64,000 bases of DNA from Rubrivivax sp. (GCA_044225625.1 JBGAII010000003.1:11234-75233); one strand, 5' to 3'; positions 3,747 through 56,902 are shown, counted from the first letter of the stretch. The notes: generated from the letters alone by a model not told the origin. Translations and numbers: made by a program.

Positions 3747-4972
3747 CGCGCATCCGTTTCGACCGGCTCGGCGGATTCGCCGGCCTGCGCAGCGCCCTGC
3801 TCCGCATGCTGCTCGCCCTGACCCTGGCCGGCTGCGGCGGCGGTGCGGGTCTTGCGGGCGGCGACGGCGGCTCCGGCGGCGTGGGCAGCGGCGGCACCGG
3901 CACCTTCGCGGTCGGGCCGATCAGTGGCTATGGCTCGATCCTGGTCAACGGCATTCGCTACGACCTCGGCCAGCTGAGTGCAGCGCCGCGCGACGACGAC
4001 GACGGTGAACGTGCCGTCGCGACACTGCAGCTGGGCACGGTGGTTCGCGTCGAAGCCGGGCCGATCGACTTCGGTGCCAGCCCGCCGCGTGCGGTGGCCC
4101 GGACGGTGCGCGTCAGCAGCGAGGTGGTGGGCCCGGTCGAGTCCGTGGTCGACGACGCCGCCGGCCGCACGCTGCGCGTCGCAGGGCAGACCGTGCGCAT
4201 CCAGGCAGGCACCACCGTGCTCGATGAACGTCTGTCCGCCGGCGCACCGGCGCCCGGCGACTGGATCGAGGTCTACGGTGCCATCGACGGCGCGGTGTCA
4301 CCGGCACGCATCGTGGCCACGCGGATCGAGCCGCATGCGGCCGATGGCGCGCGGGTGCGCGGCACCGTCACCGACATCGGCACATCGGCCTTGCGCATCG
4401 GCAGCGGCGTCTACGGCTTCGGCGGCGGCACGCCGCCCGCGGGCGCGGCGATGGGCAGCCTGCTGCAGTTGCGCCTGCAAGGCAGCGCCGGCGAAGGCTG
4501 GCAGGTGGCCACCGTGGCCGATGCGCCGACGGCGCCGGCCGAGGCGGCGGCCGCCCATGTCGAGGGACGGGTGACGAGCATCGTTTCGTCCGACCGCTTC
4601 GTGGTCGATGACCTCGTCGTGGATGCCGGCGGTCTGTCGACCGCCGGGCTGACCCTCGGCCGCAGGGTCGTGGTGGAAGGCCCGATCCGCGCCGGTGTAC
4701 TGCACGCCGAGTCGCTGCAGTTCAAGAGCGACGACGACAGTCCCGGGCAGGCGGAGCCCTACGAGTTCCACGGCACCATCGCCACCGCCGACACGGTGGC
4801 TGCGACCTTCAGCCTGAGCGGCCGCAGTGAACTGTTCCGTCTGGGCCCCGGCACGCGCTATGAAGGCGGTGGTGCCGCCAGAGCGGTCGCGGGCGTACGA
4901 CTGGAGATGCGGGGCACGCTCAACGCCGACGGCCGCAGCGTCGACGTGGTCTTCGTCCACTTCGAGGACTAG
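3743..4972 (+). CDS. Lipoprotein with a Gly-rich linker and repeated beta-rich domains (DUF5666-like).
   Basis: Internal Met (MTRIRFDRLGG...) preceded by an AGGACG RBS. Lipobox LTLAGC. Shows the repeated V..V.G.V..V motif organisation. The listed ORF start at 3569 is an upstream GTG extension. Confidence 0.6.
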   Translation: MTRIRFDRLGGFAGLRSALLRMLLALTLAGCGGGAGLAGGDGGSGGVGSGGTGTFAVGPISGYGSILVNGIRYDLGQLSAAPRDDDDGERAVATLQLGTVVRVEAGPIDFGASPPRAVARTVRVSSEVVGPVESVVDDAAGRTLRVAGQTVRIQAGTTVLDERLSAGAPAPGDWIEVYGAIDGAVSPARIVATRIEPHAADGARVRGTVTDIGTSALRIGSGVYGFGGGTPPAGAAMGSLLQLRLQGSAGEGWQVATVADAPTAPAEAAAAHVEGRVTSIVSSDRFVVDDLVVDAGGLSTAGLTLGRRVVVEGPIRAGVLHAESLQFKSDDDSPGQAEPYEFHGTIATADTVAATFSLSGRSELFRLGPGTRYEGGGAARAVAGVRLEMRGTLNADGRSVDVVFVHFED

Positions 4973-4993: not shown

Positions 4994-6199
<1,206 letters not shown>

Positions 6200-45856: not shown

Positions 45857-46795
45857 ATGGCTGTCACCAACCAATCCCTGCCGGCGAACTATCAGTTGCT
45901 GAACTACCGGATCGACCGGCAGATCAGCCGCGGCGGCTTCTCGATCGTCTACCGCGCGTACGACGAGACGGGCGCGCCCGTCGCCATCAAGGAATACCTG
46001 CCGTCGTCGCTGGTGCTGCGCACGGAAGGCGACATCGTGCGGGCGTCGTCGGCCGAGAACCTCACGTCGTTCCGCTACGGGATGAAGTGCTTCTTCGAGG
46101 AAGGCCGCGCGCTCGCCAAGATCAACCATCCCAACGTCGTGCGCGTGTTGAATTTCTTCCGCGCCAACGAGACGGTGTACATGGTGATGCGCTACGAGCG
46201 CGGGCGCACGCTGCAGCAGCAGATCCAGATGCGCCAGGACCAGATGTCCGAGCGCTTCGTCCGCCACGTGTTCATGCACCTGCTGAACGGCCTGCGCGAA
46301 GTGCACACGCACAAGCTTTTGCACCTCGACATCAAGCCGGCCAACATTTATCTCCGCACCGACGGGACGCCGGTGCTGCTGGACTTCGGCGCCGCGCGGC
46401 AAACGCTCACCAACACGCGCGCGAAGTTGGCGCCGATGTACACGCCGGGCTTCGCGGCGCCGGAGCAGTATCGGGATCCGGACCGCCTCGGGCCCTGGAC
46501 GGACGTGTATGGCGCGGGTGCGTCGATGTTCGCGTGCCTCGCGGCGTTCGCGCCGCAGGCGGCCGACGCGCGCCTGCAGGAAGACCACCTGGTGTCGGCC
46601 AAGAAGATCTGGGCGGGGCAGTACTCGGACAACATCCTCGAGGTGATCGACTGGTGCCTGCGGCTCGACCCGCTGGAGCGGCCGCAGTCGGTTTTCGCGC
46701 TGCAGAAGGCGATCCGCGACATCCCCACCAAGAAGCGCAAGCTCTCGTTCCTGGGCAACGTGAAGAAACTCCTGTTCACCGAAATCGGGGCATAG
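45857..46795 (+). CDS. Serine/threonine protein kinase (Hanks-type), cytosolic with no sensor domain.
   Basis: GxGxxS-like loop (ISRGGFSIVYRAYD), VAIKEY lysine, catalytic HLDIKPANIYL, DFG (LLDFGAA) and APE. Confidence 0.85.
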   Translation: MAVTNQSLPANYQLLNYRIDRQISRGGFSIVYRAYDETGAPVAIKEYLPSSLVLRTEGDIVRASSAENLTSFRYGMKCFFEEGRALAKINHPNVVRVLNFFRANETVYMVMRYERGRTLQQQIQMRQDQMSERFVRHVFMHLLNGLREVHTHKLLHLDIKPANIYLRTDGTPVLLDFGAARQTLTNTRAKLAPMYTPGFAAPEQYRDPDRLGPWTDVYGAGASMFACLAAFAPQAADARLQEDHLVSAKKIWAGQYSDNILEVIDWCLRLDPLERPQSVFALQKAIRDIPTKKRKLSFLGNVKKLLFTEIGA

Positions 46796-46814: not shown

Positions 46815-47738
46815 ATGCGCTTCACGATATTCCAGGAATCGCGCCGCGGTTCCCGCAAGGTCAACCAGGACCGGATCGCGTACACGTACGGACGCGACAC
46901 GCTGCTGCTCGTCATCTGCGACGGCATGGGCGGCCACGCGGGCGGCGAGATCGCAGCGCAGATCTGCGCGCGGCTCTTCATCGAGCGCTTCCAGCAGGAA
47001 GCGAAGCCGGTGCTCAAGAACCCGCTCAAGTTCCTGCAGGACACGATGCAGCGCGCGCACGCGGCGCTGGGCTCCTACGCGAACCAGTTCTCGATGCTGG
47101 AGACGCCGCGCACCACCTGCGTAGCGGTCGTCGTGCAGGCCGGGCATGCCTACTGGGCGCACGTCGGCGACTCGCGCTTCTACCTGTTCCGCCAGGGCGG
47201 GCTGATCGCGCAGACCAAGGACCACTCCAAGGTGCAGTACCTGGTCGACCAAGGGCTGATCGGCGCGCACGAGGTGGTCACGCACCCGGATCGCAACAAG
47301 ATCTTCTCCTGCCTGGGTGGGCTCGTGGAGCCGATCGTCGACCTCTCCAAGCGCACGCCGCTGCGCAACGGCGACGTGATGGTGCTGTGCACGGACGGCC
47401 TGTGGGCCGTGATGCCGCAGAACGAGATGTCGACGTGGCTCACGTCGGCGCCGATCCTCAAGACCGCGCCGCAGATGATGCGCGAGGCCGAGAAGCGCGG
47501 CGGGCCGGAAGGCGACAACCTGTCGACGATCGTCGTGCGCTGGGGCGCGGACCTTGCCACCGAGCAGGCGTCGACGGCGACGATCACCGAGTCGCTGGGG
47601 CTGGGCGAATTCGAGACGGCGATCGAGAAGACCGTGACGCTCACCGATCGCGCCGGTGCCAATCGCGACCTCACCGACGACGAGATCGAGCGCGCGATCC
47701 AGGAGATCCAGTCGACGATCCAGAAGTACCGGCGCTGA
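46815..47738 (+). CDS. PP2C-family serine/threonine phosphatase (Stp-like).
   Basis: Motifs DGMGGHAGGEIAA, HVGDSRFYLF and CTDGLW. It follows the kinase after 19 nt. Confidence 0.85.
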   Translation: MRFTIFQESRRGSRKVNQDRIAYTYGRDTLLLVICDGMGGHAGGEIAAQICARLFIERFQQEAKPVLKNPLKFLQDTMQRAHAALGSYANQFSMLETPRTTCVAVVVQAGHAYWAHVGDSRFYLFRQGGLIAQTKDHSKVQYLVDQGLIGAHEVVTHPDRNKIFSCLGGLVEPIVDLSKRTPLRNGDVMVLCTDGLWAVMPQNEMSTWLTSAPILKTAPQMMREAEKRGGPEGDNLSTIVVRWGADLATEQASTATITESLGLGEFETAIEKTVTLTDRAGANRDLTDDEIERAIQEIQSTIQKYRR

Positions 47739-49360
47739 TGGATCGGGGTCAGGCTCGATTTCGACGTTGGTTGCACGCGGTCGGTCGGGGCATTGCGCCG
47801 AGTGTCCGCGTGAAATGGCGGCGGGCGTCGTTGGTGACCCCATTGCTTGCGTTGCTGGCCGGGTGCTCGCTGTCGCCGGCCATCCAGCAGAACGCGGTCG
47901 AGTACAACGCGGCCGCCGCCAACTACAGCGACGAGCTGCTGCTGTACACCCTGCTGCGCGCACGCGACGAGGCGCCGCTCAACATGCTGGCGTTGTCCAC
48001 GATCAACGGCGCGCTGAGCCTGCAGGGGTCGGTAGGAACGACGATCTCGTACTCGGGCCTGCGCGGCGGCAGCGCGACCCAGGGCTTCGGCGGCGTCGTC
48101 ACGCCGTCCATGCTCGCGACGTCGTCGCCGACGTTCAGCATGGCGTCGCTGAACACACAGGGCTTCACGCTGGGCATCATCCAGCCCGTGTCGCCGGTGT
48201 ATATCGCGAGCAAGTGGAGCAACGGCGCCGACCGCGAGTTCCTGCTGCGCCTCTTCATCAAATCGATCCGAATGAACGAGGGCGGGCGCTATCGCGACTA
48301 CTTCAACAACCCCTCGTCGCCGGAAGAAATTGCGGCGTTCAATGCGAAGCTGCACGGGTGGATCCCGCACATGACGATGCGTGCGCTCACCGTGCTGGAG
48401 CCGCTGGGACCGCCGTTCGATCCGGCGATCGACGCGCGCGTGACCGCCACGCTGTCGACGCCGGCGAGCGGGGATGCGACACCGGCGTCGACGACCCCGG
48501 TGCCGTCCGCCAATCCGGCGGCCACGGCCATGCTCGGCGCCTACCAGCACCTGTTGCCGCTCGGCACCGGTGCCTACCGCGTCGGCAACGCGCCGCCCGT
48601 GTCGCGCCCGGGCGTGACGACGCTGCAGCTGTATCGCGAATTCCCGCAGCAGGTGGTGCTGTGCATCGACCGGCGCGCGCTTGGTGACGAGGCGCTCGCT
48701 GTCACCACCGCGCCTCTGGTCGCGGAATCGCCCACCGTGGCCAATGCACAGGTGGCGCAAGCGCTCAAGTCCGCCGCGCTGGCCGGGGCGGGCGCCAGCG
48801 GACGTGCCGCGGCCGGCGGCACGGCCGTCGCCGGGTCCGGCACGGGGCCCATCAACGGCCGCGCGCCCGGTGGCGTGGGCTCGCCGCCGGCATCGCTCGG
48901 CACCAACCTCAAGGTCGACCGCATCGCGGCCATCGTGCCGCGCGAGGTGTGCACGCAGGACGAGCTCGTGCTGCCCGCGATGACCGAGGAGAAGAACGCG
49001 CGCGACAGCAGCACGTTCAGCCACGTCGAATGGCGTTCGGTCGCCGAGGTGATCCAGTACCTCGGCGCGATGTTGCGCACCGGCACGCCCGACGACGCGC
49101 GGACATGGCGCGAATCGTCGCGCGATGGCGGCGATGGCGCGCTCAACGTGATGTTCGCCGCGAGCACCGCCGGCGAGGCCGGCTTCGTCGCGATCGACTA
49201 TCGCGGGCAACGCTACGCGGTGAATACGGACGCCGCGCGCAAGCCCGGCGCGCCGCGCGACCACAGCCTGCAGGCGATGGCGCTTGTCAGCGAGCTCATC
49301 AGCGCCGCGAAGGTGTCCAGCGACATCCCCACGACGCAGCCGATCCAGTTGCTGCCCTGA
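47738..49360 (+). CDS. Large lipoprotein of unknown function, co-transcribed with the kinase/phosphatase pair.
   Basis: Starts MDRGQARFRRWLHAVGRGIAPSVRVKWRRASLVTPLLALLAGCS with an LLAGC lipobox. TGATG overlap with the phosphatase stop. 540 aa with no recognisable domain. Confidence 0.6.
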   Translation: MDRGQARFRRWLHAVGRGIAPSVRVKWRRASLVTPLLALLAGCSLSPAIQQNAVEYNAAAANYSDELLLYTLLRARDEAPLNMLALSTINGALSLQGSVGTTISYSGLRGGSATQGFGGVVTPSMLATSSPTFSMASLNTQGFTLGIIQPVSPVYIASKWSNGADREFLLRLFIKSIRMNEGGRYRDYFNNPSSPEEIAAFNAKLHGWIPHMTMRALTVLEPLGPPFDPAIDARVTATLSTPASGDATPASTTPVPSANPAATAMLGAYQHLLPLGTGAYRVGNAPPVSRPGVTTLQLYREFPQQVVLCIDRRALGDEALAVTTAPLVAESPTVANAQVAQALKSAALAGAGASGRAAAGGTAVAGSGTGPINGRAPGGVGSPPASLGTNLKVDRIAAIVPREVCTQDELVLPAMTEEKNARDSSTFSHVEWRSVAEVIQYLGAMLRTGTPDDARTWRESSRDGGDGALNVMFAASTAGEAGFVAIDYRGQRYAVNTDAARKPGAPRDHSLQAMALVSELISAAKVSSDIPTTQPIQLLP

Positions 49361-49433: not shown

Positions 49434-50192
49434 ATGCGCCACCTGATCCTGGACACCGAGACCACGGGCCTCGACCCGCGGCAAGACCATCGGATCATCG
49501 AAATCGCCGTGCTGGAGCTCGTGGACCGCCGGCCCACCGGGCGCACGTTGCACATGCACCTGGACCCCGAGCGCGAGATCGACGCCGGGGCCACCGAAGT
49601 CCACGGGATGCGCTGGGACGACCTGCGCGGCAAGCCGAAGTTCGGCGACGTCGCGCACGAACTGATCGCGTTCCTGCAGGGCGCCGAGTGGATAATCCAC
49701 AACGCGCCGTTCGACGTCGCCTTCCTCGACGCCGAGTTCGGCCGCCATGGCCATCCGCTGTGCAGCGTGCACGCGGCGCGCATCGTCGACACGCTGGCGA
49801 TGGCACGCGAGGCCTTTCCCGGCCGCCGCAACAGCCTGGACGCGCTGTGCGAGCGCTTCGGCGTCGACAACAGCGGCCGCACGTTGCACGGCGCGCTGCT
49901 CGACGCGCAACTGCTGTCCGAGGTGTGGCTCTCGCTGACGCGCGGCCAGGACGCGCTCGCCATCGACATGACGCCGCCGGCGCCGCCGCGGCCGGTGCTG
50001 GCGCGCGAAGGCGGCGAGACCGGGCGCGTGCCGCTGATCGTGCTCGCGCCGAGCGCCGACGAGCTGGCCGCCCATGCCGCTTACCTTGCGGCGCTGGACA
50101 AGCAGACCAAGGGCCGTTGCGTATGGCTCGCGCGGGAGCGCGCGGCGAATCCCGTCGCGCCGCCCGCGGGCCCGACGCCCGCCGCCGCCTGA
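49434..50192 (+). CDS. DEDDh 3'-5' exonuclease of the DNA polymerase III epsilon (DnaQ) family.
   Basis: Exo I motif MRHLILDTETTGLDP, Exo II IIHNAPFDVAFL and Exo III HGALLDAQLLSEV. A TATAAT box lies about 15 nt upstream. Confidence 0.8.
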   Translation: MRHLILDTETTGLDPRQDHRIIEIAVLELVDRRPTGRTLHMHLDPEREIDAGATEVHGMRWDDLRGKPKFGDVAHELIAFLQGAEWIIHNAPFDVAFLDAEFGRHGHPLCSVHAARIVDTLAMAREAFPGRRNSLDALCERFGVDNSGRTLHGALLDAQLLSEVWLSLTRGQDALAIDMTPPAPPRPVLAREGGETGRVPLIVLAPSADELAAHAAYLAALDKQTKGRCVWLARERAANPVAPPAGPTPAAA

Positions 50193-51706
50193 TGCCCATC
50201 GACTACCTGCAGAAGATCCTGACGGCGCGCGTATACGACGTGGCGCAGGAAACGCCGCTCGAGTTCGCGCCGACGCTGTCGCGCCGCACCGGCAACCGCA
50301 TCCTGCTGAAGCGCGAGGACCAGCAGCCGGTGTTCTCGTTCAAGCTGCGGGGCGCCTACAACAAGATGGTCAACCTGACGCCGGCCGAGCGCGCGAAAGG
50401 CGTGCTCGCCGCGTCGGCGGGCAACCATGCGCAAGGCGTCGCGCTCGCGGCGCAGAAGCTCGGCTGCAAGGCGACGATCGTGATGCCGGTGACCACGCCG
50501 CAGATCAAGATCAACGCCGTGGCCGCGCGCGGCGCGCACGTCGTGCTGCGCGGCGACTCGTACAGCGATGCCTACGCGCACGCGCTGGCGCTGCAGAAGA
50601 AGTCCGGCGCCACGTTCGTCCATCCCTACGACGATCCCGACGTCATCGCGGGCCAGGGCACGATTGGCGTCGAGATCCTGCGCCAGTGCGAAGGCCCGCT
50701 CGACGCGATCTTCGTCGCCATCGGCGGCGGTGGGCTGATCTCCGGCATCGCGGCTTACGTGAAGCGCGTGCGCCCCGACGTGCGCATCATCGGCGTGCAG
50801 CCCACCGACAGCGACGCGATGGCGCGCTCGATCGCCGCCGGCCGCCGCGTGGAACTCGCGCACGTCGGCCTCTTTGCCGACGGCGTGGCGGTGAAGCAGG
50901 TGGGCAGGGAGACGTTCAGGATCGCGCGCGAACTCGTCGACGAGATCGTGCTGGTGGATACGGACGCCACATGCGCCGCGCTGAAGGACGTGTTCGAGGA
51001 CACGCGCAGCGTGCTGGAGCCCGCGGGCGCGCTGGCGATCGCGGGCGCCAAGCAGTGGATCGCGGCCAACAAGGCGCGCGGCGGCACGTTCGTCGCCGTC
51101 GCCTGCGGCGCGAACATGAATTTCGACCGCCTGCGCTTCGTCGCCGAGCGCGCCGAGGTCGGCGAGCAGCGCGAGGCGCTGATCGCGGTGACCATCCCCG
51201 AGCAGCCCGGCAGTTTCCGCGCGTTCTGCGCGCTGCTGGGAAAGCGCTCGATCACCGAGTTCAATTACCGCTACGCGGGTCCGGGCGTCGCGCACCTGTT
51301 CGTCGGGCTGGAAGTGGGCAACCGCGACGAGACGCGCAAGCTGCTCGCCGAGCTGAAGAAGCGCCGCATCGACGCGTTCGACCTGACCGACAACGAAATG
51401 GCCAAGCTGCACGTGCGCCACCTGGTGGGCGGCCACGCGCCGGCGGCGGAGCACGAGATCGTCTACCGCTTCGAATTTCCCGAGCGGCCCGGCGCGCTGA
51501 TGAAGTTCCTCGACAGCATGAGCGCCGGCTGGAACATCAGCCTCTTCCACTACCGCAATCACGGCGCCGACTACGGTCGCGTGCTGGTCGGCATGCAGGT
51601 GCCGCCCGGCGACAAGCGGGCGTTCAAGGCGTTCCTGGACGGTTTGGGGTATGACTACGTCGATGAGACGGCCAACCCCGCTTACGCCATGTTCCTCGGC
51701 CGTTGA
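50192..51706 (+). CDS. ilvA: Threonine ammonia-lyase, biosynthetic (IlvA), with a C-terminal ACT-like regulatory domain.
   Basis: Starts MPIDYLQKILTARVYDVAQETPLEFAPTLSRRTGNRILLKREDQQPVFSFKLRGAYNKM (the PLP lysine region). Full IlvA-length at 504 aa. TGATG overlap with the exonuclease stop. Confidence 0.9.
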   Translation: MPIDYLQKILTARVYDVAQETPLEFAPTLSRRTGNRILLKREDQQPVFSFKLRGAYNKMVNLTPAERAKGVLAASAGNHAQGVALAAQKLGCKATIVMPVTTPQIKINAVAARGAHVVLRGDSYSDAYAHALALQKKSGATFVHPYDDPDVIAGQGTIGVEILRQCEGPLDAIFVAIGGGGLISGIAAYVKRVRPDVRIIGVQPTDSDAMARSIAAGRRVELAHVGLFADGVAVKQVGRETFRIARELVDEIVLVDTDATCAALKDVFEDTRSVLEPAGALAIAGAKQWIAANKARGGTFVAVACGANMNFDRLRFVAERAEVGEQREALIAVTIPEQPGSFRAFCALLGKRSITEFNYRYAGPGVAHLFVGLEVGNRDETRKLLAELKKRRIDAFDLTDNEMAKLHVRHLVGGHAPAAEHEIVYRFEFPERPGALMKFLDSMSAGWNISLFHYRNHGADYGRVLVGMQVPPGDKRAFKAFLDGLGYDYVDETANPAYAMFLGR

Positions 51707-51731: not shown

Positions 51732-52316
51732 TCATTCGAGCCGGTCGATGCACACCTGCATCGCCGCGCCCAGGTCGCGGATCAGGTCGGCGTCGGGCAT
51801 GGCCACCAGCCGCGGCGTTTCGAAGATGTAGCGCGACGAGAGCAGGCCCACGATCTGGCTTCCCACCAGCGCGACGACGGCCTCGAGGTTGCGGAAATTC
51901 CCGTACTGCCTGAACACGTTGCGATACGCCTCCGCAAACGGCTCGCCATAGCGTTGCCGCGCGTCCATGCTCGTAAAGGAGGTCAGCAGCATCGCGCGGC
52001 GGATATTCCGGTGCGCGGGATCGCGCCAAGCCGTGACGATGCGCTCCACGATCGCCTCGCCGAGATGTGCGAGCGGGACGCCCGCGAATTGCTCCGGGGC
52101 CACCGGCTTGAACTCCATCGCGGTGGCAAAGAGCCGCTCTTTGCTCCCGTAGTAGCGCATCACCATCGCGGGGTTGATGTTTGCCGCCGCCGCGATGGCG
52201 CGGATCGTCGCGTTGTCGTAGCCTTGCCGGGCAAACACCGCCCTGGCCGCTTCGAGAATACGGTCGCGGGTGGGCTGGGAGCGCAGGGGCCGATGCTCCA
52301 AGTTGTTGATTTGCAT
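51732..52316 (-). CDS. TetR/AcrR family transcriptional regulator.
   Basis: N-terminal HTH: RILEAARAVFARQGYDNATIRAIAAAANINPAMVMRYYGSKERLF. Confidence 0.85.
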   Translation of the reverse strand: MQINNLEHRPLRSQPTRDRILEAARAVFARQGYDNATIRAIAAAANINPAMVMRYYGSKERLFATAMEFKPVAPEQFAGVPLAHLGEAIVERIVTAWRDPAHRNIRRAMLLTSFTSMDARQRYGEPFAEAYRNVFRQYGNFRNLEAVVALVGSQIVGLLSSRYIFETPRLVAMPDADLIRDLGAAMQVCIDRLE

Positions 52317-52319
52317 ATT

Positions 52320-52410
52320 GTTAATATCTTATTGCAAACCTTCGTTTGCAAACGACTGTTGAAGCATGTAGAGTGCAAACGTTGGGTTGCATACCTATGT
52401 TTGCAATCAT
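52320..52410. promoter_or_regulatory. AT-rich divergent promoter with repeated TTTGCAAAC-type half-sites, including the perfect 10 bp palindrome GTTTGCAAAC. Putative TetR operators.
   Basis: Five copies of TTGCAAAC, GTGCAAAC, TTGCATAC or TTGCAATC within about 80 bp, between the TetR gene (minus) and the repeat-precursor gene (plus). Confidence 0.45.
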
Positions 52411-52468
52411 ATCCCAAACCCGCGGGGCGGGGCCATCCGGGGTAAGGCCCGGGCTACAGGAGTTCACA

Positions 52469-52918
52469 ATGTCATCGAAGCAGAAGCTGTCCCAAGCGCT
52501 CGCAGCCGTCCTCCCGGCCGGCGCGGTGGGTGCATCCGTCGTGCTGGCGCTGGCGCCCGCGCAGGCGGCGACGGTGTCGTCCGTGACCACCGCATCGACG
52601 CCGGCCACGCCGGCCACCGTTGCCGAGCGGCTCGAGGCGATCCGCGCCGGCGTTTCCGCGGCAATCGTCGCGCCGGCTCCCGCTGCGGCGGATGAAGCCG
52701 CCAGCGAGACCGCCGACGAAACGGCGGAAGGCGGTGCGTTCATCCCGACGTGGTGGGGCAACGGCGGCTGGGGCCGCTTCGGCATCGGCTGGGGCAATGG
52801 CGGCTGGCACAACTGGGGCAACGGCTGGCACAACTGGGGGAACGGTTGGCACAACTGGGGCAACGGCGGCTGGAACAACTGGCACAACGGCTGGAACAAC
52901 TTCTGGCACAACGCCTGA
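52469..52918 (+). CDS. Secreted Gly/Trp/Asn/His-rich tandem-repeat protein, a candidate precursor for the adjacent radical SAM/SPASM enzyme (GRRM-like system).
   Basis: Starts MSSKQKLSQALAAVLPAGAVGASVVLALAPAQA (signal peptide) after an AGGAG RBS. A Thr/Ala/Pro linker follows, then WWGNGGWGRFGIGWGNGGWHNWGNGWHNWGNGWHNWGNGGWNNWHNGWNNFWHNA. This tail is encoded by three near-identical 21 bp direct DNA repeats (GGCTGGCACAACTGGGGCAAC). Confidence 0.7.
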   Translation: MSSKQKLSQALAAVLPAGAVGASVVLALAPAQAATVSSVTTASTPATPATVAERLEAIRAGVSAAIVAPAPAAADEAASETADETAEGGAFIPTWWGNGGWGRFGIGWGNGGWHNWGNGWHNWGNGWHNWGNGGWNNWHNGWNNFWHNA

Positions 52919-52945
52919 CCGCGGCGCGAGACGAGCGAGCCCCCG

Positions 52946-54178
52946 ATGGCCTCATCTGCGACCCGTCCCGGCTGCGCGCACGCGCCGTCGACGTCCGTCG
53001 TCGTCGTGCAGCCCACGCCGTTCTGCAACATCGACTGCAACTACTGCTACCTGCCGGATCGCAGCGACAAGTCCACGATGGCGGACGCCACGCTGCGCGC
53101 GCTGTTCGAGAAGCTGTTCGCGTCGGGCTGGGCGGCGTCGCACGTCACGGTGATCTGGCACGCGGGCGAGCCGCTGGTGATGCCCGTCGCGTGGTACGAG
53201 CGCGCGTTCACGCTGATCGAGTCGCTGCGGCCCGCGCACGTGGGCATCCATCACTCGTTCCAGACCAACGGCACGCTGTTGTCGAAGGCGTGGTGCGACC
53301 TCTTCAAGCGCTGGCACGTGGGCGTCGGCGTCAGCATCGACGGCCCGCGTCGCTTCAACGACGCGCATCGCGTCGGGCGTGACGGGCGCAGCACCTACGA
53401 CAAGGTGATCAAGGGCCTGCGGCTGCTGCGCGACGAGGACGTGCCTTTCCACGTGATCTCGGTGCTCACCGACGAGAGCCTGGACGCGCCCGACGAGATG
53501 CTCGCGTTCTACCGCGAGCACGGCGTCACCAACGTGTGCTTCAACGTCGAGGAATCGGAAGGCAGCCACGTGTCGGCGCTGTTCGCCAGCGCCGCGCCTG
53601 CCGCGCGCTTCCGGGCGTTCCTGGAGCGTTTCTGGCGCGAGGCGCGACGCGACGGCAGCGTGGAGTTCATCCGCGAGGTCGACGGGATGATCCCGCGCGT
53701 CTTCCGCCCCGAGGGCGGCGCGATGCACAACGTGCAGGTGGAGCCGTTCGCGATGCTGAACGTCGACTGCCGCGGCAACGCGTCGACGTTCTCGCCGGAG
53801 TTGCTGGGCCTGCGCAACGCGACGTACGGCGACTTCATCGTCGGCAACGTCAACACGGACACGTTCGAGGCGATGCGCGACAGCGCCGCGCTCGCGGCCA
53901 TGGCGCGCGACATCGCGGCGGGCGTCGAGCGCTGCCGCTCGTCGTGCGACTACTTTTCCGTCTGCGGCGGCGGCGCGCCGGTCAACAAGCTCACCGAGAA
54001 CGGCTCGTTCGACAGCGCCGCCACGGGCTTCTGCGAGTTGACGCAGAAGGTGGCCACCGACCTGGTGCTCGACGCGTTCGACCGCCTGCAGGGCCTGCCC
54101 GTACCGCCCCTCGCCGCAATGCCGCCGCCGTCCGCGCGCGCCGAACGGCGCCGCACCATTCCGCTCGTGCCCGTCTGA
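52946..54178 (+). CDS. Radical SAM / SPASM-domain maturase (anSME-like).
   Basis: CNIDCNYC (CxxxCxxC) at residues 27-34. Cys-rich C-terminal SPASM-type region (CRGNAS...CRSSCDYFSVCGGG). Lies 27 nt downstream of the repeat-protein gene. Confidence 0.85.
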   Translation: MASSATRPGCAHAPSTSVVVVQPTPFCNIDCNYCYLPDRSDKSTMADATLRALFEKLFASGWAASHVTVIWHAGEPLVMPVAWYERAFTLIESLRPAHVGIHHSFQTNGTLLSKAWCDLFKRWHVGVGVSIDGPRRFNDAHRVGRDGRSTYDKVIKGLRLLRDEDVPFHVISVLTDESLDAPDEMLAFYREHGVTNVCFNVEESEGSHVSALFASAAPAARFRAFLERFWREARRDGSVEFIREVDGMIPRVFRPEGGAMHNVQVEPFAMLNVDCRGNASTFSPELLGLRNATYGDFIVGNVNTDTFEAMRDSAALAAMARDIAAGVERCRSSCDYFSVCGGGAPVNKLTENGSFDSAATGFCELTQKVATDLVLDAFDRLQGLPVPPLAAMPPPSARAERRRTIPLVPV

Positions 54179-54228
54179 TGCAACGACGGGCGAACCACGC
54201 ATTCATCGAATCGAACCGGAGACTCTCC

Positions 54229-54984
54229 ATGCAACGCAAATCCTTCGCGGCAGCGCTGGCTGCCACCACGCTGGCGCTGGGCACTTCCGTGGCGCTCGCG
54301 CAGACGCCGTCCGCACAACGTCCGGCCATGGCGCCCTCGGGCCCGACGCCGGCGCAACTGGCGGAGATGCCGCCCGCGGCGGGTCTGTCGCCCGCGCAGG
54401 CGGCGCCGCTCACCGCCAACGAGACCCCGGTGCATGCCGTGCTGCGCATCGCCAGCGTCGAGGTCGTGCGCACGACGCGGCAACCGTACATGGACATCGT
54501 CCGCGTGCGCGGCCTGGCCAGCAGCAACGGCTGGGAAGAAGTGGAACTCGTGCCGCTTACGCGCGGCTCGCCGCCGGACGGTATCTTGCACCTCGTCATG
54601 GTTGCGCGGCCGCCGGCGGGCGCCGCCACGGCCACCGGCTACGAACCCGTGGAAGCGATCCTGCCGCTCTCGAGCCCGGCCGCGTACAAGGGCGTCAGCG
54701 TGCACGCCGCGGCCAATTCCGTGGAGGTCGACACGTCGCCCGGCTATTCTGAGGCGAAGCCGATCAACGACGATTGCGGTGCCTGTGTCGGCAAGATCCT
54801 GCTCGCGAAGGGCGCAACGGCGGGGCCCGCGGCGGGCGCCGAGACGATCACCGAAGACCAGCTGCCGCCCGGAACGCGCGTCGTGCGGCCGGGCGACGGC
54901 CTGATGGGCATCGGTTCCAATCCCAACCGCCTGTCACTGCTCGTCAACAAGGAAGGCCGGATCGTCTCGGCCATCTGGGACTGA
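54229..54984 (+). CDS. Secreted protein with a C-terminal I78-family peptidase-inhibitor-like domain.
   Basis: Signal peptide MQRKSFAAALAATTLALGTSVALAQT after a GGAGA RBS. The C-terminus (LPPGTRVVRPGDGLMGIGSNPNRLSLLVNKEGRIVSAIWD) is I78-like. Confidence 0.5.
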   Translation: MQRKSFAAALAATTLALGTSVALAQTPSAQRPAMAPSGPTPAQLAEMPPAAGLSPAQAAPLTANETPVHAVLRIASVEVVRTTRQPYMDIVRVRGLASSNGWEEVELVPLTRGSPPDGILHLVMVARPPAGAATATGYEPVEAILPLSSPAAYKGVSVHAAANSVEVDTSPGYSEAKPINDDCGACVGKILLAKGATAGPAAGAETITEDQLPPGTRVVRPGDGLMGIGSNPNRLSLLVNKEGRIVSAIWD

Positions 54985-55006
54985 TGGTCGAATCGAGGAC
55001 TGCGTC

Positions 55007-55444
55007 ATGAACAAGTTCGCCATGCCCGCCGCGTTCGGGGCCGTCATTGCCTTCGCGGCCTCCGGCTGCGCTACGGCCACGCAGCAGATCACGATGGGCG
55101 ACACCAACATGTGCCTCAACGTGGTCAACCACGGCTCCCCGGAACCCGGTGCCGTCGTCAACGTGAAGCCTTGCGACCCTTGGCAGAACCAGCAATGGAC
55201 GTACAACGGAGACGGCACGATCACCGGCGTCGGCGGCTTCTGCATCGACGTCAAGGGCGGCCAGGGCGTCAACGGCGCGGACGTCATCTACACGCCGTGC
55301 TCCGGCGCGCCGAGCCAGAAGTGGACGCCATCCAACGGCAGCTTCGTTGGGGTCGGCGGCAAGTGCCTGGACGTGCTCGACGGCCTGCACGTGGTGCTCA
55401 ACACCTGCAACGGGACGCCGACCCAGCGCTGGATCTCGCGGTAG
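55007..55444 (+). CDS. Ricin-type beta-trefoil lectin-domain lipoprotein.
   Basis: Lipobox FAASGC. Three QxW repeats (QQW, QKW, QRW) with the spacing of a beta-trefoil. Confidence 0.75.
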   Translation: MNKFAMPAAFGAVIAFAASGCATATQQITMGDTNMCLNVVNHGSPEPGAVVNVKPCDPWQNQQWTYNGDGTITGVGGFCIDVKGGQGVNGADVIYTPCSGAPSQKWTPSNGSFVGVGGKCLDVLDGLHVVLNTCNGTPTQRWISR

Positions 55445-55462
55445 CAGGCTGGCGACGCCGTG

Positions 55463-55492
55463 AAAAGGGCTGCCCGCGGGCAGCCCTTTTCG
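55463..55492. terminator. Bidirectional intrinsic terminator: AAAA-GGGCTGCC-CGCG-GGCAGCCC-TTTT.
   Basis: A perfect 8 bp stem flanked by an A-tract and a T-tract. It sits between the convergent ricin-lectin gene (plus) and the TctC gene (minus). Confidence 0.6.
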
Positions 55493-55514: not shown

Positions 55515-56513
55515 TCAGTCGACCGTCGCGCCGCTCGCCTTGACCACCTTGCCCCACTTCTCGCGCTCGGCGGCGACGAAGGCGGCGAACGCGGCCGGCG
55601 GCTCGCCGACGTTCTCGGAGCCGGTTTCGGTCAGGATGCGTTGCCAGTCGGGCCCCTGCATGATCTTCAGCGCCGCGGCATTCAGCTTGGCCACGATGTC
55701 GGGCGGCGTCTTCGCCGGCGCGAAGAAGCCGTACCACGCATAGGACTCGAAGCCGCTCATCCCGGCTTCCGAGAACGTCGGCACGTCGGGCAGCGCGGAC
55801 GAGCGCTTGGCGCTGGTGATCGCGATCGCGCGCACCTTGCCCGCCTTGATCATCGGCAGGATGGCGATGGCGCTGTCGAACATGATCGGCACGTGGCCGC
55901 CGACGAGGTCGGAGATCGCCGGCGCCGAGCCCTTGTACGGCACGTGCGTGATGTCGAGGCCCGCGGTGGTCTTGAACAGTTCGCCGGTCAGGTGCTGCGG
56001 CGTGCCGTTGCCGGACGACGCGTATTGCACGTTGCCCTTCTGCGCCTTGATCCAGGCGATCAGCTCGGTCAGGTTCTTCGCCGGCACCGACGGGTTGACG
56101 GCGAGGATCAGCGGCACGCGGAGCAGGTTGGTGATCGGCGCGAGGTCCTTCGCGGGATCGAACGCCATCTGCTTGTAGAGGCTCGGGTTGATGGCCACCG
56201 GCGCGCTCGACGTGATCAGCAGCGTGTAGCCGTCCGGCTTGGCTTCCGTGACGAGCGTCGTCCCGAGGTTGCCGCCGGCGCCGCCGCGGTTGTCGATGAT
56301 GAACGATTGGCCGAGCAGTTCCGTGAGGCCCTTGGCCATCGGCCGTGCCGCGATGTCCGAGGGCCCGCCCGGCGGCCAGGGCACGATGATCGTGACGGGG
56401 TGGGTCGGCCAGGCCTGCGCCTGGACGGCGAAGGGCACGAGGCCCAGCGCGGCCAGGGAGCCGGCGGCCAGCAGTTTCAGCAAAGTGCGCAACGAAGTGA
56501 CGACAGGGGGCAT
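55515..56513 (-). CDS. Tripartite tricarboxylate transporter substrate-binding protein (TctC / Bug family), orphan.
   Basis: Signal peptide MPPVVTSLRTLLKLLAAGSLAALGLVPFAVQA. Motifs PGGPSDIAARPMA and DNRGGAGG. Listed ORF 55515..56549. Confidence 0.85.
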   Translation of the reverse strand: MPPVVTSLRTLLKLLAAGSLAALGLVPFAVQAQAWPTHPVTIIVPWPPGGPSDIAARPMAKGLTELLGQSFIIDNRGGAGGNLGTTLVTEAKPDGYTLLITSSAPVAINPSLYKQMAFDPAKDLAPITNLLRVPLILAVNPSVPAKNLTELIAWIKAQKGNVQYASSGNGTPQHLTGELFKTTAGLDITHVPYKGSAPAISDLVGGHVPIMFDSAIAILPMIKAGKVRAIAITSAKRSSALPDVPTFSEAGMSGFESYAWYGFFAPAKTPPDIVAKLNAAALKIMQGPDWQRILTETGSENVGEPPAAFAAFVAAEREKWGKVVKASGATVD

Positions 56514-56902
56514 GGCAGGACTCGCGGCGGGTTGAGCCAGGTTGGCCACGCCGATGATACCGCCTGCGCACGCGAAGCCGGTGGGCAGTGCTCATGCATT
56601 TGGCATAGAAAATGCGCCTGCAGCCGGCACACCTTGCCCCTTTGCGTCAGCGCGCGACGGTCTCGCTTTGCGAACCTGTTGCGTTTTCATCGAAATCGAC
56701 GCCAAGTGCCGATTCCGGCAAGGTTTGTGCTCTAGGCAGTTGGTTGACCCCGTGGCACACTCCCGCGCAGGGAGGGGGTGCCGGACCGCTTGCCGCCCGA
56801 AGGGCAAGCCGGCGGTCGGGTCGATTCGCAATCGCCGCGAGGCGCACCAAACAAGTGCGCGCGTGGCCCGGGCGGGCAACCGCCGGAAGAAAGGACCAGC
56901 GT

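Follow-up and report, generated by a model that had tools for sequence, protein, structure and literature searches.

We describe a locus within a 64,000-nucleotide (nt) stretch of DNA from Rubrivivax sp. (GCA_044225625.1 JBGAII010000003.1:11234-75233). This whole stretch is called the window here, and all positions are counted in it. The locus is very probably a four-gene operon of the Grr/Osc type that makes a triceptide, a product carrying three-residue cyclophanes. Its core consists of a gene for a 149-amino-acid (aa) precursor resembling GrrA/OscA1 (52469-52918, plus strand) and a gene for a 410-aa radical S-adenosylmethionine (SAM) enzyme of the GrrM/OscB family (52946-54178, plus strand). 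Going by homology and the literature, the enzyme is a three-residue cyclophane synthase and the adjacent repeat protein is its substrate. The locus shows no new enzyme reaction; the chemistry of the family is already known. Two more genes follow on the plus strand. One encodes a secreted partner protein of 251 aa made of a beta-sandwich and an I78-like domain (54229-54984), and the other a ricin-type beta-trefoil lectin lipoprotein of 145 aa (55007-55444).

The radical SAM enzyme

The enzyme scores 414.6 bits against a cut-off of 310 on TIGR04261, the NCBI model for the cyclophane-forming radical SAM/SPASM peptide maturase GrrM/OscB, which is a 'subfamily' model and not an equivalog. Residues 21-379 align with profile positions 1-362 of 363. 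A sequence-only reading of the same DNA had assigned the enzyme to the GRRM system, and this score bears it out. Other NCBIfam models all stay under their cut-offs: AmcB (308 against 425), YhhB, XyeB, DynA, DarW and FxsB. PF04055 gives 69.2 bits. The same reading had reported a radical SAM gene with CNIDCNYC 27 nt downstream of the precursor gene. That is where the gene lies, and the three cysteines of its CX3CX2C cluster motif (C27, C31, C34) are invariant in 22 of 22 relatives. It had also described a Cys-rich, SPASM-type C-terminus. This is borne out in part: C330-x3-C334-x5-C340 and C363 are the only C-terminal cysteines invariant in the 22 relatives, and C275 is present in 14. The Pfam SPASM model gave no match at E <= 10 and Radical_SAM alone was reported, in a search whose HMMER filters drop most matches above E ~0.1.

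The nearest solved structure is the triceptide synthase ChlB (9gm3), and an alignment reveals a C-terminal pattern common to ChlB and the enzyme, C-x(2,3)-C-x5-C-G-G-G-[AS]. The second nearest is an anaerobic sulfatase-maturating enzyme, anSME (4k37, E = 3e-19), and there is also a match to TIGR03942 (anaerobic sulfatase maturase) at E = 1.8e-49. One could argue from these matches that the enzyme matures sulfatases, or that it is some other SPASM enzyme acting outside the peptides that are ribosomally synthesised and then modified post-translationally (RiPPs), and that the repeat protein, secreted and rich in Gly and Trp, has nothing to do with it. We find this hardly credible. The TIGR03942 match reaches 168.7 bits where the cut-off is 349.45, while the TIGR04261 score lies well above its own cut-off. 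No sulfatase gene neighbours that of the enzyme, which is flanked by those for the repeat protein, the I78-like protein and, further on, the lectin. Repeat protein and enzyme stay side by side in at least 23 loci, which come from Alpha-, Beta- and Gammaproteobacteria. The sequence-only reading had itself raised the case of a sulfatase maturase lacking conserved synteny with the repeat protein; on both hidden Markov model (HMM) scores and synteny we reject that identity.

The synteny comes from a genome scan with the radical SAM protein, which returned 23 loci, all in metagenome-assembled genomes (MAGs). These belong to the Casimicrobiaceae, Steroidobacteraceae, Acetobacteraceae, Stellaceae and unclassified Alpha- and Gammaproteobacteria, with a few distant ones in the Acidobacteriaceae, Actinomycetota, Rhodoblastus and Cytophagales. 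Four extra contigs, retrieved from distant members of the I78-like family, bring the set to 27. Each of the 19 loci with an enzyme of 53% identity or more has a precursor rich in Trp, Gly and Asn directly upstream. The co-occurrence of precursor and enzyme, which had been left as a check, is thus seen as adjacency in 19 of the 23 genome loci plus the four contigs, and the claim that the repeat protein is the substrate of the enzyme gains from this conserved neighbourhood.

The chemistry to be expected comes from OscB (IPR026357). According to a 2024 review (PMC11002830) that relates the work of Nguyen et al. (2020, Nat Chem 12:1042), OscB co-expressed with its precursor forms C-C bonds that join C7 of a Trp at residue i to C-beta of an Asn or Asp at i+2, and it also joins Phe-C4 to Asn-C-beta. 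The same review calls the three-residue cyclophane products triceptides and the enzymes three-residue cyclophane-forming enzymes, or 3-CyFEs. Each cyclophane means a loss of 2 Da (PMC12912966). What we cite of the Nat Chem 2020, JACS 2022 and Haft and Basu 2011 papers comes by way of PMC11002830 and PMC11499958. The NCBI model names for both families now reflect cyclophane chemistry. The earlier statement that no chemistry had been shown for the GRRM system is outdated, having been overtaken by the OscB cyclophanes of 2020 (PMC11002830). The crosslinks it expected among Trp, Asn and His of the repeat protein agree, for Trp and Asn, with OscB chemistry.

Judging by the family and the publications, GrrM/OscB would bind the precursor in the cytoplasm, probably through the conserved leader motif ERLxAIRxGV. 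Reductive cleavage of SAM would give a 5'-deoxyadenosyl radical, which would take a C-beta hydrogen from the Asn at i+2 of each Trp-x-Asn. The carbon radical would then add to the indole of Trp i (at C7 in OscB), and re-aromatisation would leave a strained three-residue cyclophane and a mass lower by 2 Da per motif. Twelve such motifs would turn the 57-aa tail into an almost unbroken chain of small rings. The modified protein would finally leave through Sec by means of the N-terminal signal peptide suggested by its sequence.

The precursor and its Trp-x-Asn core

The open reading frame (ORF) at 52469-52918 encodes exactly the 149-aa protein and the tail that the sequence-only reading had quoted. 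Judged by eye and from hydropathy, residues 1-33 have the n/h/c layout of a Sec signal peptide that would end in AQA, followed by A, with the hydropathy maximum over residues 6-30, a hydrophobic stretch of about 21 residues (10-30) and a Lys in the n-region. Residues 51-63 (VAERLEAIRAGVS) are the conserved leader motif and residues 64-92 an acidic Ala/Pro-rich linker. Residues 93-149 form the W/G/N/H core (52745-52915, plus strand). Its 57 aa include 17 Gly (30%), 14 Trp (25%), 14 Asn (25%) and 5 His. There are 12 Trp-x-Asn motifs, the predicted cyclophane sites, at W96, 108, 113, 116, 120, 123, 127, 130, 135, 138, 142 and 146, and one Trp-Gly-Arg at W101. At the DNA level the three nearly identical 21-bp direct repeats noticed earlier are real: tandem units of GGCTGGCACAACTGGGGCAAC fill 52802-52864 on the plus strand (52802-52822, 52823-52843 and 52844-52864), each encoding G-W-H-N-W-G-N, and copies 2 and 3 are each one base off copy 1. 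Tandem Repeats Finder reports a period of 21 with 4.7 copies and 84% matches over 52801-52901.

Homologues of the precursor number more than 1000 in metagenomes, and many are named 'rSAM-associated Gly-rich repeat protein' or 'GrrA/OscA1'. Across 121 family members the residue at +2 of Trp is Asn in 76% of cases, against 21% in composition-matched shuffled cores, and each precursor holds 9-12 WxN motifs. We think it likely that most or all 12 motifs of the window precursor are cross-linked.

A collection of 15 billion proteins contains the radical SAM enzyme, the I78-like protein and the lectin encoded on the same contig, but not the exact 149-aa precursor. Gene callers apparently missed the precursor or took another start; the first ATG/GTG/TTG of the frame is a TTG at 52346, which would yield 190 aa. 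In some relatives a single enzyme gene is preceded by a tandem pair of genes of the size of a precursor gene. Both members of the pair encode W/G/N-rich precursors in L015 (5067-5465 and 5611-5964) and in L017 (5263-5469 and 5611-5964); in L029 the pair (3758-4210 and 4295-4708) encodes 150 and 137 aa.

Points against this reading

Several points weigh against a triceptide operon with an exported product. The precursor matches TIGR04260 (GrrA/OscA1 cyclophane-containing rSAM-modified RiPP) and no other model, and with 27.1 bits (E = 4.9e-6) it falls under the curated cut-off of 31. One characterised cyanobacterial enzyme is the source from which both the regiochemistry (C7 or C6) and the count of modified motifs would be extrapolated. 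The hydrophobic segment of the precursor, at about 21 residues, is long and unusually conserved; instead of a cleaved signal it may be a membrane anchor or belong to the recognition sequence. A sigma-70 scan finds no site at the 9-of-12 threshold. The roles proposed for the I78-like protein and the lectin are read from synteny alone, and four loci (L009-L011 and L023) have neither gene.

We believe the first of these points has an answer. Relatives of the precursor do exceed the TIGR04260 cut-off: the orthologue P0121 (78% identical) scores 33.1 bits, P0191 scores 46.5 and the L006 copy 80.7. Because they do, we regard the window precursor as a divergent member of the family and not as an outsider. 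The L006 copy aligns to TIGR04260 over its full length, with residue 4 at profile position 2. It follows from these scores and this alignment that the whole architecture, hydrophobic N-terminus included, is that of the family.

Proposed export of the modified protein

The sequence-only reading saw a conflict between a precursor with a signal peptide and a cytoplasmic radical SAM enzyme. AtsB, a radical SAM enzyme of the cytoplasm, acts on Ser-type sulfatases prior to their Sec export. Among RiPPs, Sec export is rare, and experimental demonstration is limited to the bufferins (PMC12452194). Bufferin precursors carry Sec signal peptides, are modified by MNIO enzymes and are then exported by Sec; the authors infer that modification precedes export, and they suspect that the signal peptide lies within the recognition sequence of the enzyme (PMC12452194). 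Three-residue rings make no folded domain. Given the bufferin precedent and rings that give no folded domain, the conflict between compartments is a weak argument and no real obstacle.

We lean towards the view that the N-terminal 33 residues are a Sec signal and that the modified protein would be exported without a dedicated transporter. In precursors from the loci a small-x-small motif (AQA, VQA, SKA, AVA and similar) closes the hydrophobic segment. When neighbouring ORFs were clustered, no transporter or protease family was common to at least four of the 23 loci. The families found in at least five were the radical SAM enzyme, the I78-like protein and the lectin, with frames overlapping these; short precursor ORFs were scanned separately.

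The alternative is that the N-terminal segment is a leader or recognition element, or a signal anchor, that stays uncleaved. The product would then be cytoplasmic or tethered to the membrane, or it would be freed as small cyclophane peptides by proteases and transporters encoded elsewhere in the genome. The motif LPxGAxG occurs in the hydrophobic segment of 84 of the 121 precursor family members, a degree of conservation far above that of ordinary signal peptides. The segment lies inside the cyanobacterial TIGR04260 profile, as the L006 alignment shows, its length is that of a transmembrane helix, and the bufferin signal peptide is itself thought to be part of a recognition sequence (PMC12452194). 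We nevertheless consider an uncleaved segment unlikely. The small-x-small motifs at its end are matched by Lys or Arg N-terminal to it, the neighbourhoods share no gene for a peptidase or an ABC transporter, and both conserved accessory proteins are themselves exported, the I78-like protein by a signal peptide and the lectin as a lipoprotein. The conservation of LPxGAxG would fit a dual role as signal and recognition element, and a signal anchor would be compatible with it as well.

The secreted partner and the lectin

The 251-aa partner consists of a signal peptide (ALA, followed by Q), a variable Pro/Ala linker, a beta-sandwich at about residues 70-165 and a C-terminal I78-like domain. In the alignment its highly conserved domain contains ...SVEVIRS...LDIIRVRGLASS.GWEEAELVPLTRG..., and the C-terminal domain has an invariant D-C-x-x-C-V-G-K together with NPNRL...W-D. 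The first of these C-terminal motifs (54775-54798, residues 183-190) holds the only two cysteines of the family, invariant among its members; they may form a disulfide, serve in redox chemistry or belong to a metal site. The sequence-only reading had called this protein I78-type and inhibitor-like. Its signal peptide fits a secreted protein, and 13 of 31 family members match PF11720 at E <= 0.01 (best E = 6e-8), so the C-terminal domain is I78-like at the level of the family. The window copy itself matches over residues 216-246 (profile 31-60 of 65) at 20.2 bits, below the gathering score of 23.6, and the earlier label leaves out the separate beta-sandwich.

This partner family is small. It forms 255 clusters at 90% identity, a search of 1.84 billion proteins gave 329 representatives at E <= 0.001, and every source that names a member calls it 'hypothetical protein'. 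Larger proteins of 565-708 aa (P0278, P0291, P0292, P0294, P0322) carry the beta-sandwich four to five times in tandem, and it therefore behaves as a reusable extracellular module.

The last gene of the unit is a QxW beta-trefoil lectin lipoprotein, just as had been read from the sequence. It scores 74.2 bits on PF00652 against a cut-off of 29, has the three QxW motifs QQW, QKW and QRW, and carries an A-S-G-C lipobox that is kept in direct orthologues. Lectin genes adjoin the cassette in nine of the 23 loci and in L026 and L029 (11 of 27), with 2-3 copies in some. In 15 of the 23 loci (36-82% identity) and in all four extra contigs, or 19 of 27, the next gene after that for the radical SAM enzyme is the I78-like one.

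Synteny would place the exported product in the envelope together with the co-transcribed beta-sandwich/I78-like protein and the lectin lipoprotein. That these two proteins act on the product or with it there is a possibility we take seriously without favouring it. It could instead be argued that both are functionally unlinked to the modified protein and that their genes have been carried along within one lineage. The loci L009-L011 and L023 consist of precursor and enzyme only, and the lectin occurs in under half of the loci, its gene being on the other strand in L026. Such hitchhiking seems rather improbable to us in view of the I78-like gene, which lies directly after the radical SAM gene and on the same strand in 19 of the 19 loci that have it. 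In those loci the enzyme is 53-82% identical to the window copy, and the MAGs are labelled Alphaproteobacteria, Gammaproteobacteria, Steroidobacteraceae and Casimicrobiaceae. The small size of the partner family and the lack of any other annotation for its members speak against hitchhiking too.

The probable operon and its proposed regulation

The intergenic gaps within the four-gene unit are 27, 50 and 22 nt. The unit ends at a palindromic intrinsic terminator, GAAAAGGGCUGCCCGCGGGCAGCCCUUUUC (55462-55491), shared with a convergent TctC/Bug-family gene on the minus strand (55515-56549). This is a perfect palindrome with a 13-bp stem and with A and U runs on both flanks. It folds at -39.6 kcal/mol (z = -4.57), and none of 200 shuffles is as stable, in keeping with the earlier description of a bidirectional terminator closing the unit. 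The short gaps and the single strong terminator would favour one operon. Rfam gives no credible match in the 5' untranslated region (UTR) or the rest of the operon. An RNA element in the 5' UTR was considered and dropped, as the fold there is no better than shuffles (z = +0.64). Elsewhere in the window there is no second W-rich ORF and no radical SAM paralogue.

A gene for a 194-aa TetR-family regulator (51732-52316, minus strand; PF00440 55 bits, PF17920 59.7 bits) diverges from the precursor gene across a spacer of 152 bp, as had been noted before. The probable operator/promoter region (52332-52406) has inverted repeats, with TTGCAAAC/GTTTGCAA half-sites around a candidate sigma-70 promoter. 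This 8-mer occurs five times in the 64 kb, where 0.75 would be expected, and four of the five copies fall within 52332-52406, in keeping with the earlier description of an operator-rich promoter. The candidate promoter is TTGCAA (52346-52351), 17 nt and TAGAGT (52369-52374), which matches 8 of 12 positions and was proposed from conservation with L001. There, the GTTTGCAAAC palindrome and TTGCAA-N17-TAGAGT are both kept in the spacer between TetR gene and precursor gene. Neither the TetR gene nor the palindrome is found in L012, the closest relative (enzyme 82% identical), where the promoter candidate is also missing and ilvA abuts the precursor gene.

In this lineage the divergent TetR repressor would bind the TTGCAAAC palindromes overlapping the promoter, as the conserved motifs suggest, and it probably represses the operon of this genome in that way. 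It is no general feature of the system. Among the 23 genome loci L001 alone has a TetR gene, and in the four further contigs none was called beside the cassette, so the description of the system as TetR-gated does not carry over to its relatives. The ilvA gene (threonine dehydratase; 50189-51706 in the window) adjoins the cassette in the window, L001 and L012, with TetR between them only in the window and L001. The shared ilvA neighbour means that the position of the cassette has been inherited within the lineage.

Neighbouring genes and other loci

Further upstream the window encodes a Ser/Thr protein kinase at 45857-46795 and a PP2C phosphatase at 46815-47738. The same part of it encodes a lipoprotein with an LLAGC lipobox and some 520 aa (about 47800-49360). 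This lipoprotein is 35-36% identical to a 597-aa lipoprotein that comes directly after the I78-like gene in L024 (5720-7513), and the latter has a homologue in L008 (9854-11581). It may be a loosely linked fifth component, or this may be coincidence. A Bestrophin-like membrane protein (PF14023) stands beside the Grr cassette in five independent loci (L008 4669-5427, L022 8423-9181, L024 2384-3148, L026 6450-7211 and L028 6741-7505); the window lacks it. Frameshifts split the radical SAM gene in L022 (6001-7107), L023 (6001-7080) and L024 (3745-4934); these are either pseudogenes or MAG assembly errors.

Two loci, L018 and L021, were read among the four distant ones (enzyme 39-43% identical). 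The L018 precursor (5509-5892) has FSQ/FNN/FGQ repeats and that of L021 (1940-2239) has F-K-K-R (FKK) repeats; neither precursor has a signal peptide, and neither locus has an I78-like gene or a lectin. Both precursors keep a leader helix like ERLxAIR (of the form E-x-L-x-x-I-R). They are probably other triceptide classes, and as examples of 3-CyFE systems they differ from the window in having shorter precursors that lack signal peptides.

Comparison with known systems

The window pair shares with OscA/OscB (GrrA/GrrM) of cyanobacteria an enzyme of the same family above the curated cut-off, an adjacent precursor, and a precursor layout of hydrophobic N-terminus, leader and Gly-rich repeat tail with Trp-x-Asn. 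It differs in its host, a proteobacterium of a soil-type lineage whose nearest relatives are L012 (a 'Proteobacteria bacterium' MAG) and L001 (a Casimicrobiaceae MAG). The window precursor is also just below the family cut-off, and the cassette adds the beta-sandwich/I78-like gene, the lectin lipoprotein gene and the TetR of its lineage. XncB, MscB, ChlB, HaaB, YhhB and WprB likewise perform radical SAM C-C coupling of an aromatic ring to the C-beta of residue i+2, but they act on other target motifs (Trp/Arg, Phe/Ser, Tyr/Asp, His/Ala and others).

Bufferins (PMC12452194) resemble the window system in a different way. In both, a Sec-type signal peptide, a putative one in the window, takes the place of the classical leader and transporter, the precursor is long and protein-like, and the likely place of work is the periplasm. 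The bufferins are made by an MNIO enzyme with a DUF2063 partner, whereas the window has a radical SAM enzyme, and they carry copper-binding heterocycles derived from Cys in contrast to the predicted Trp-Asn cyclophanes of the window. The partner protein resembles the I78 family (PF11720) in its C-terminal 35-65 residues, the part that matches the profile in those 13 of 31 members; unlike that family, the window partner is below the gathering score and has the domain fused to an uncharacterised beta-sandwich.

In the literature searched, the primary triceptide papers aside, no I78-like gene, recurrent lectins, Sec-type export or TetR is described for triceptide clusters. We place the core pair in the GrrA/GrrM (OscA/OscB) family, after which the NCBI models name close relatives, and provisionally regard the accessory module as possibly undescribed.

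What the locus may mean

No biological function for Grr/Osc-type triceptides is reported in the literature searched. We offer one tentative idea, knowing that it is more probably wrong than right. The proteobacterial Grr product would be, not a small diffusible product, but a Sec-exported protein of about 115 aa with a poly-cyclophane tail, working in the envelope as part of a three-protein module. The I78-like protein would be its periplasmic partner, whether as carrier, protease shield or processing factor, and the lectin lipoprotein, presumably in the outer membrane, would target or anchor it to glycans. If this were true it would be the first biological role for triceptides and would come with a new accessory protein family.

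The clade offers several leads to follow: a protein-size precursor with up to 12 predicted cyclophanes and Sec-like export, a linked family of secreted partners and recurrent lectins. The TetR switch of this genome could serve to induce the operon. With these in hand, the question of what triceptides are for becomes experimentally approachable in a Gram-negative host.

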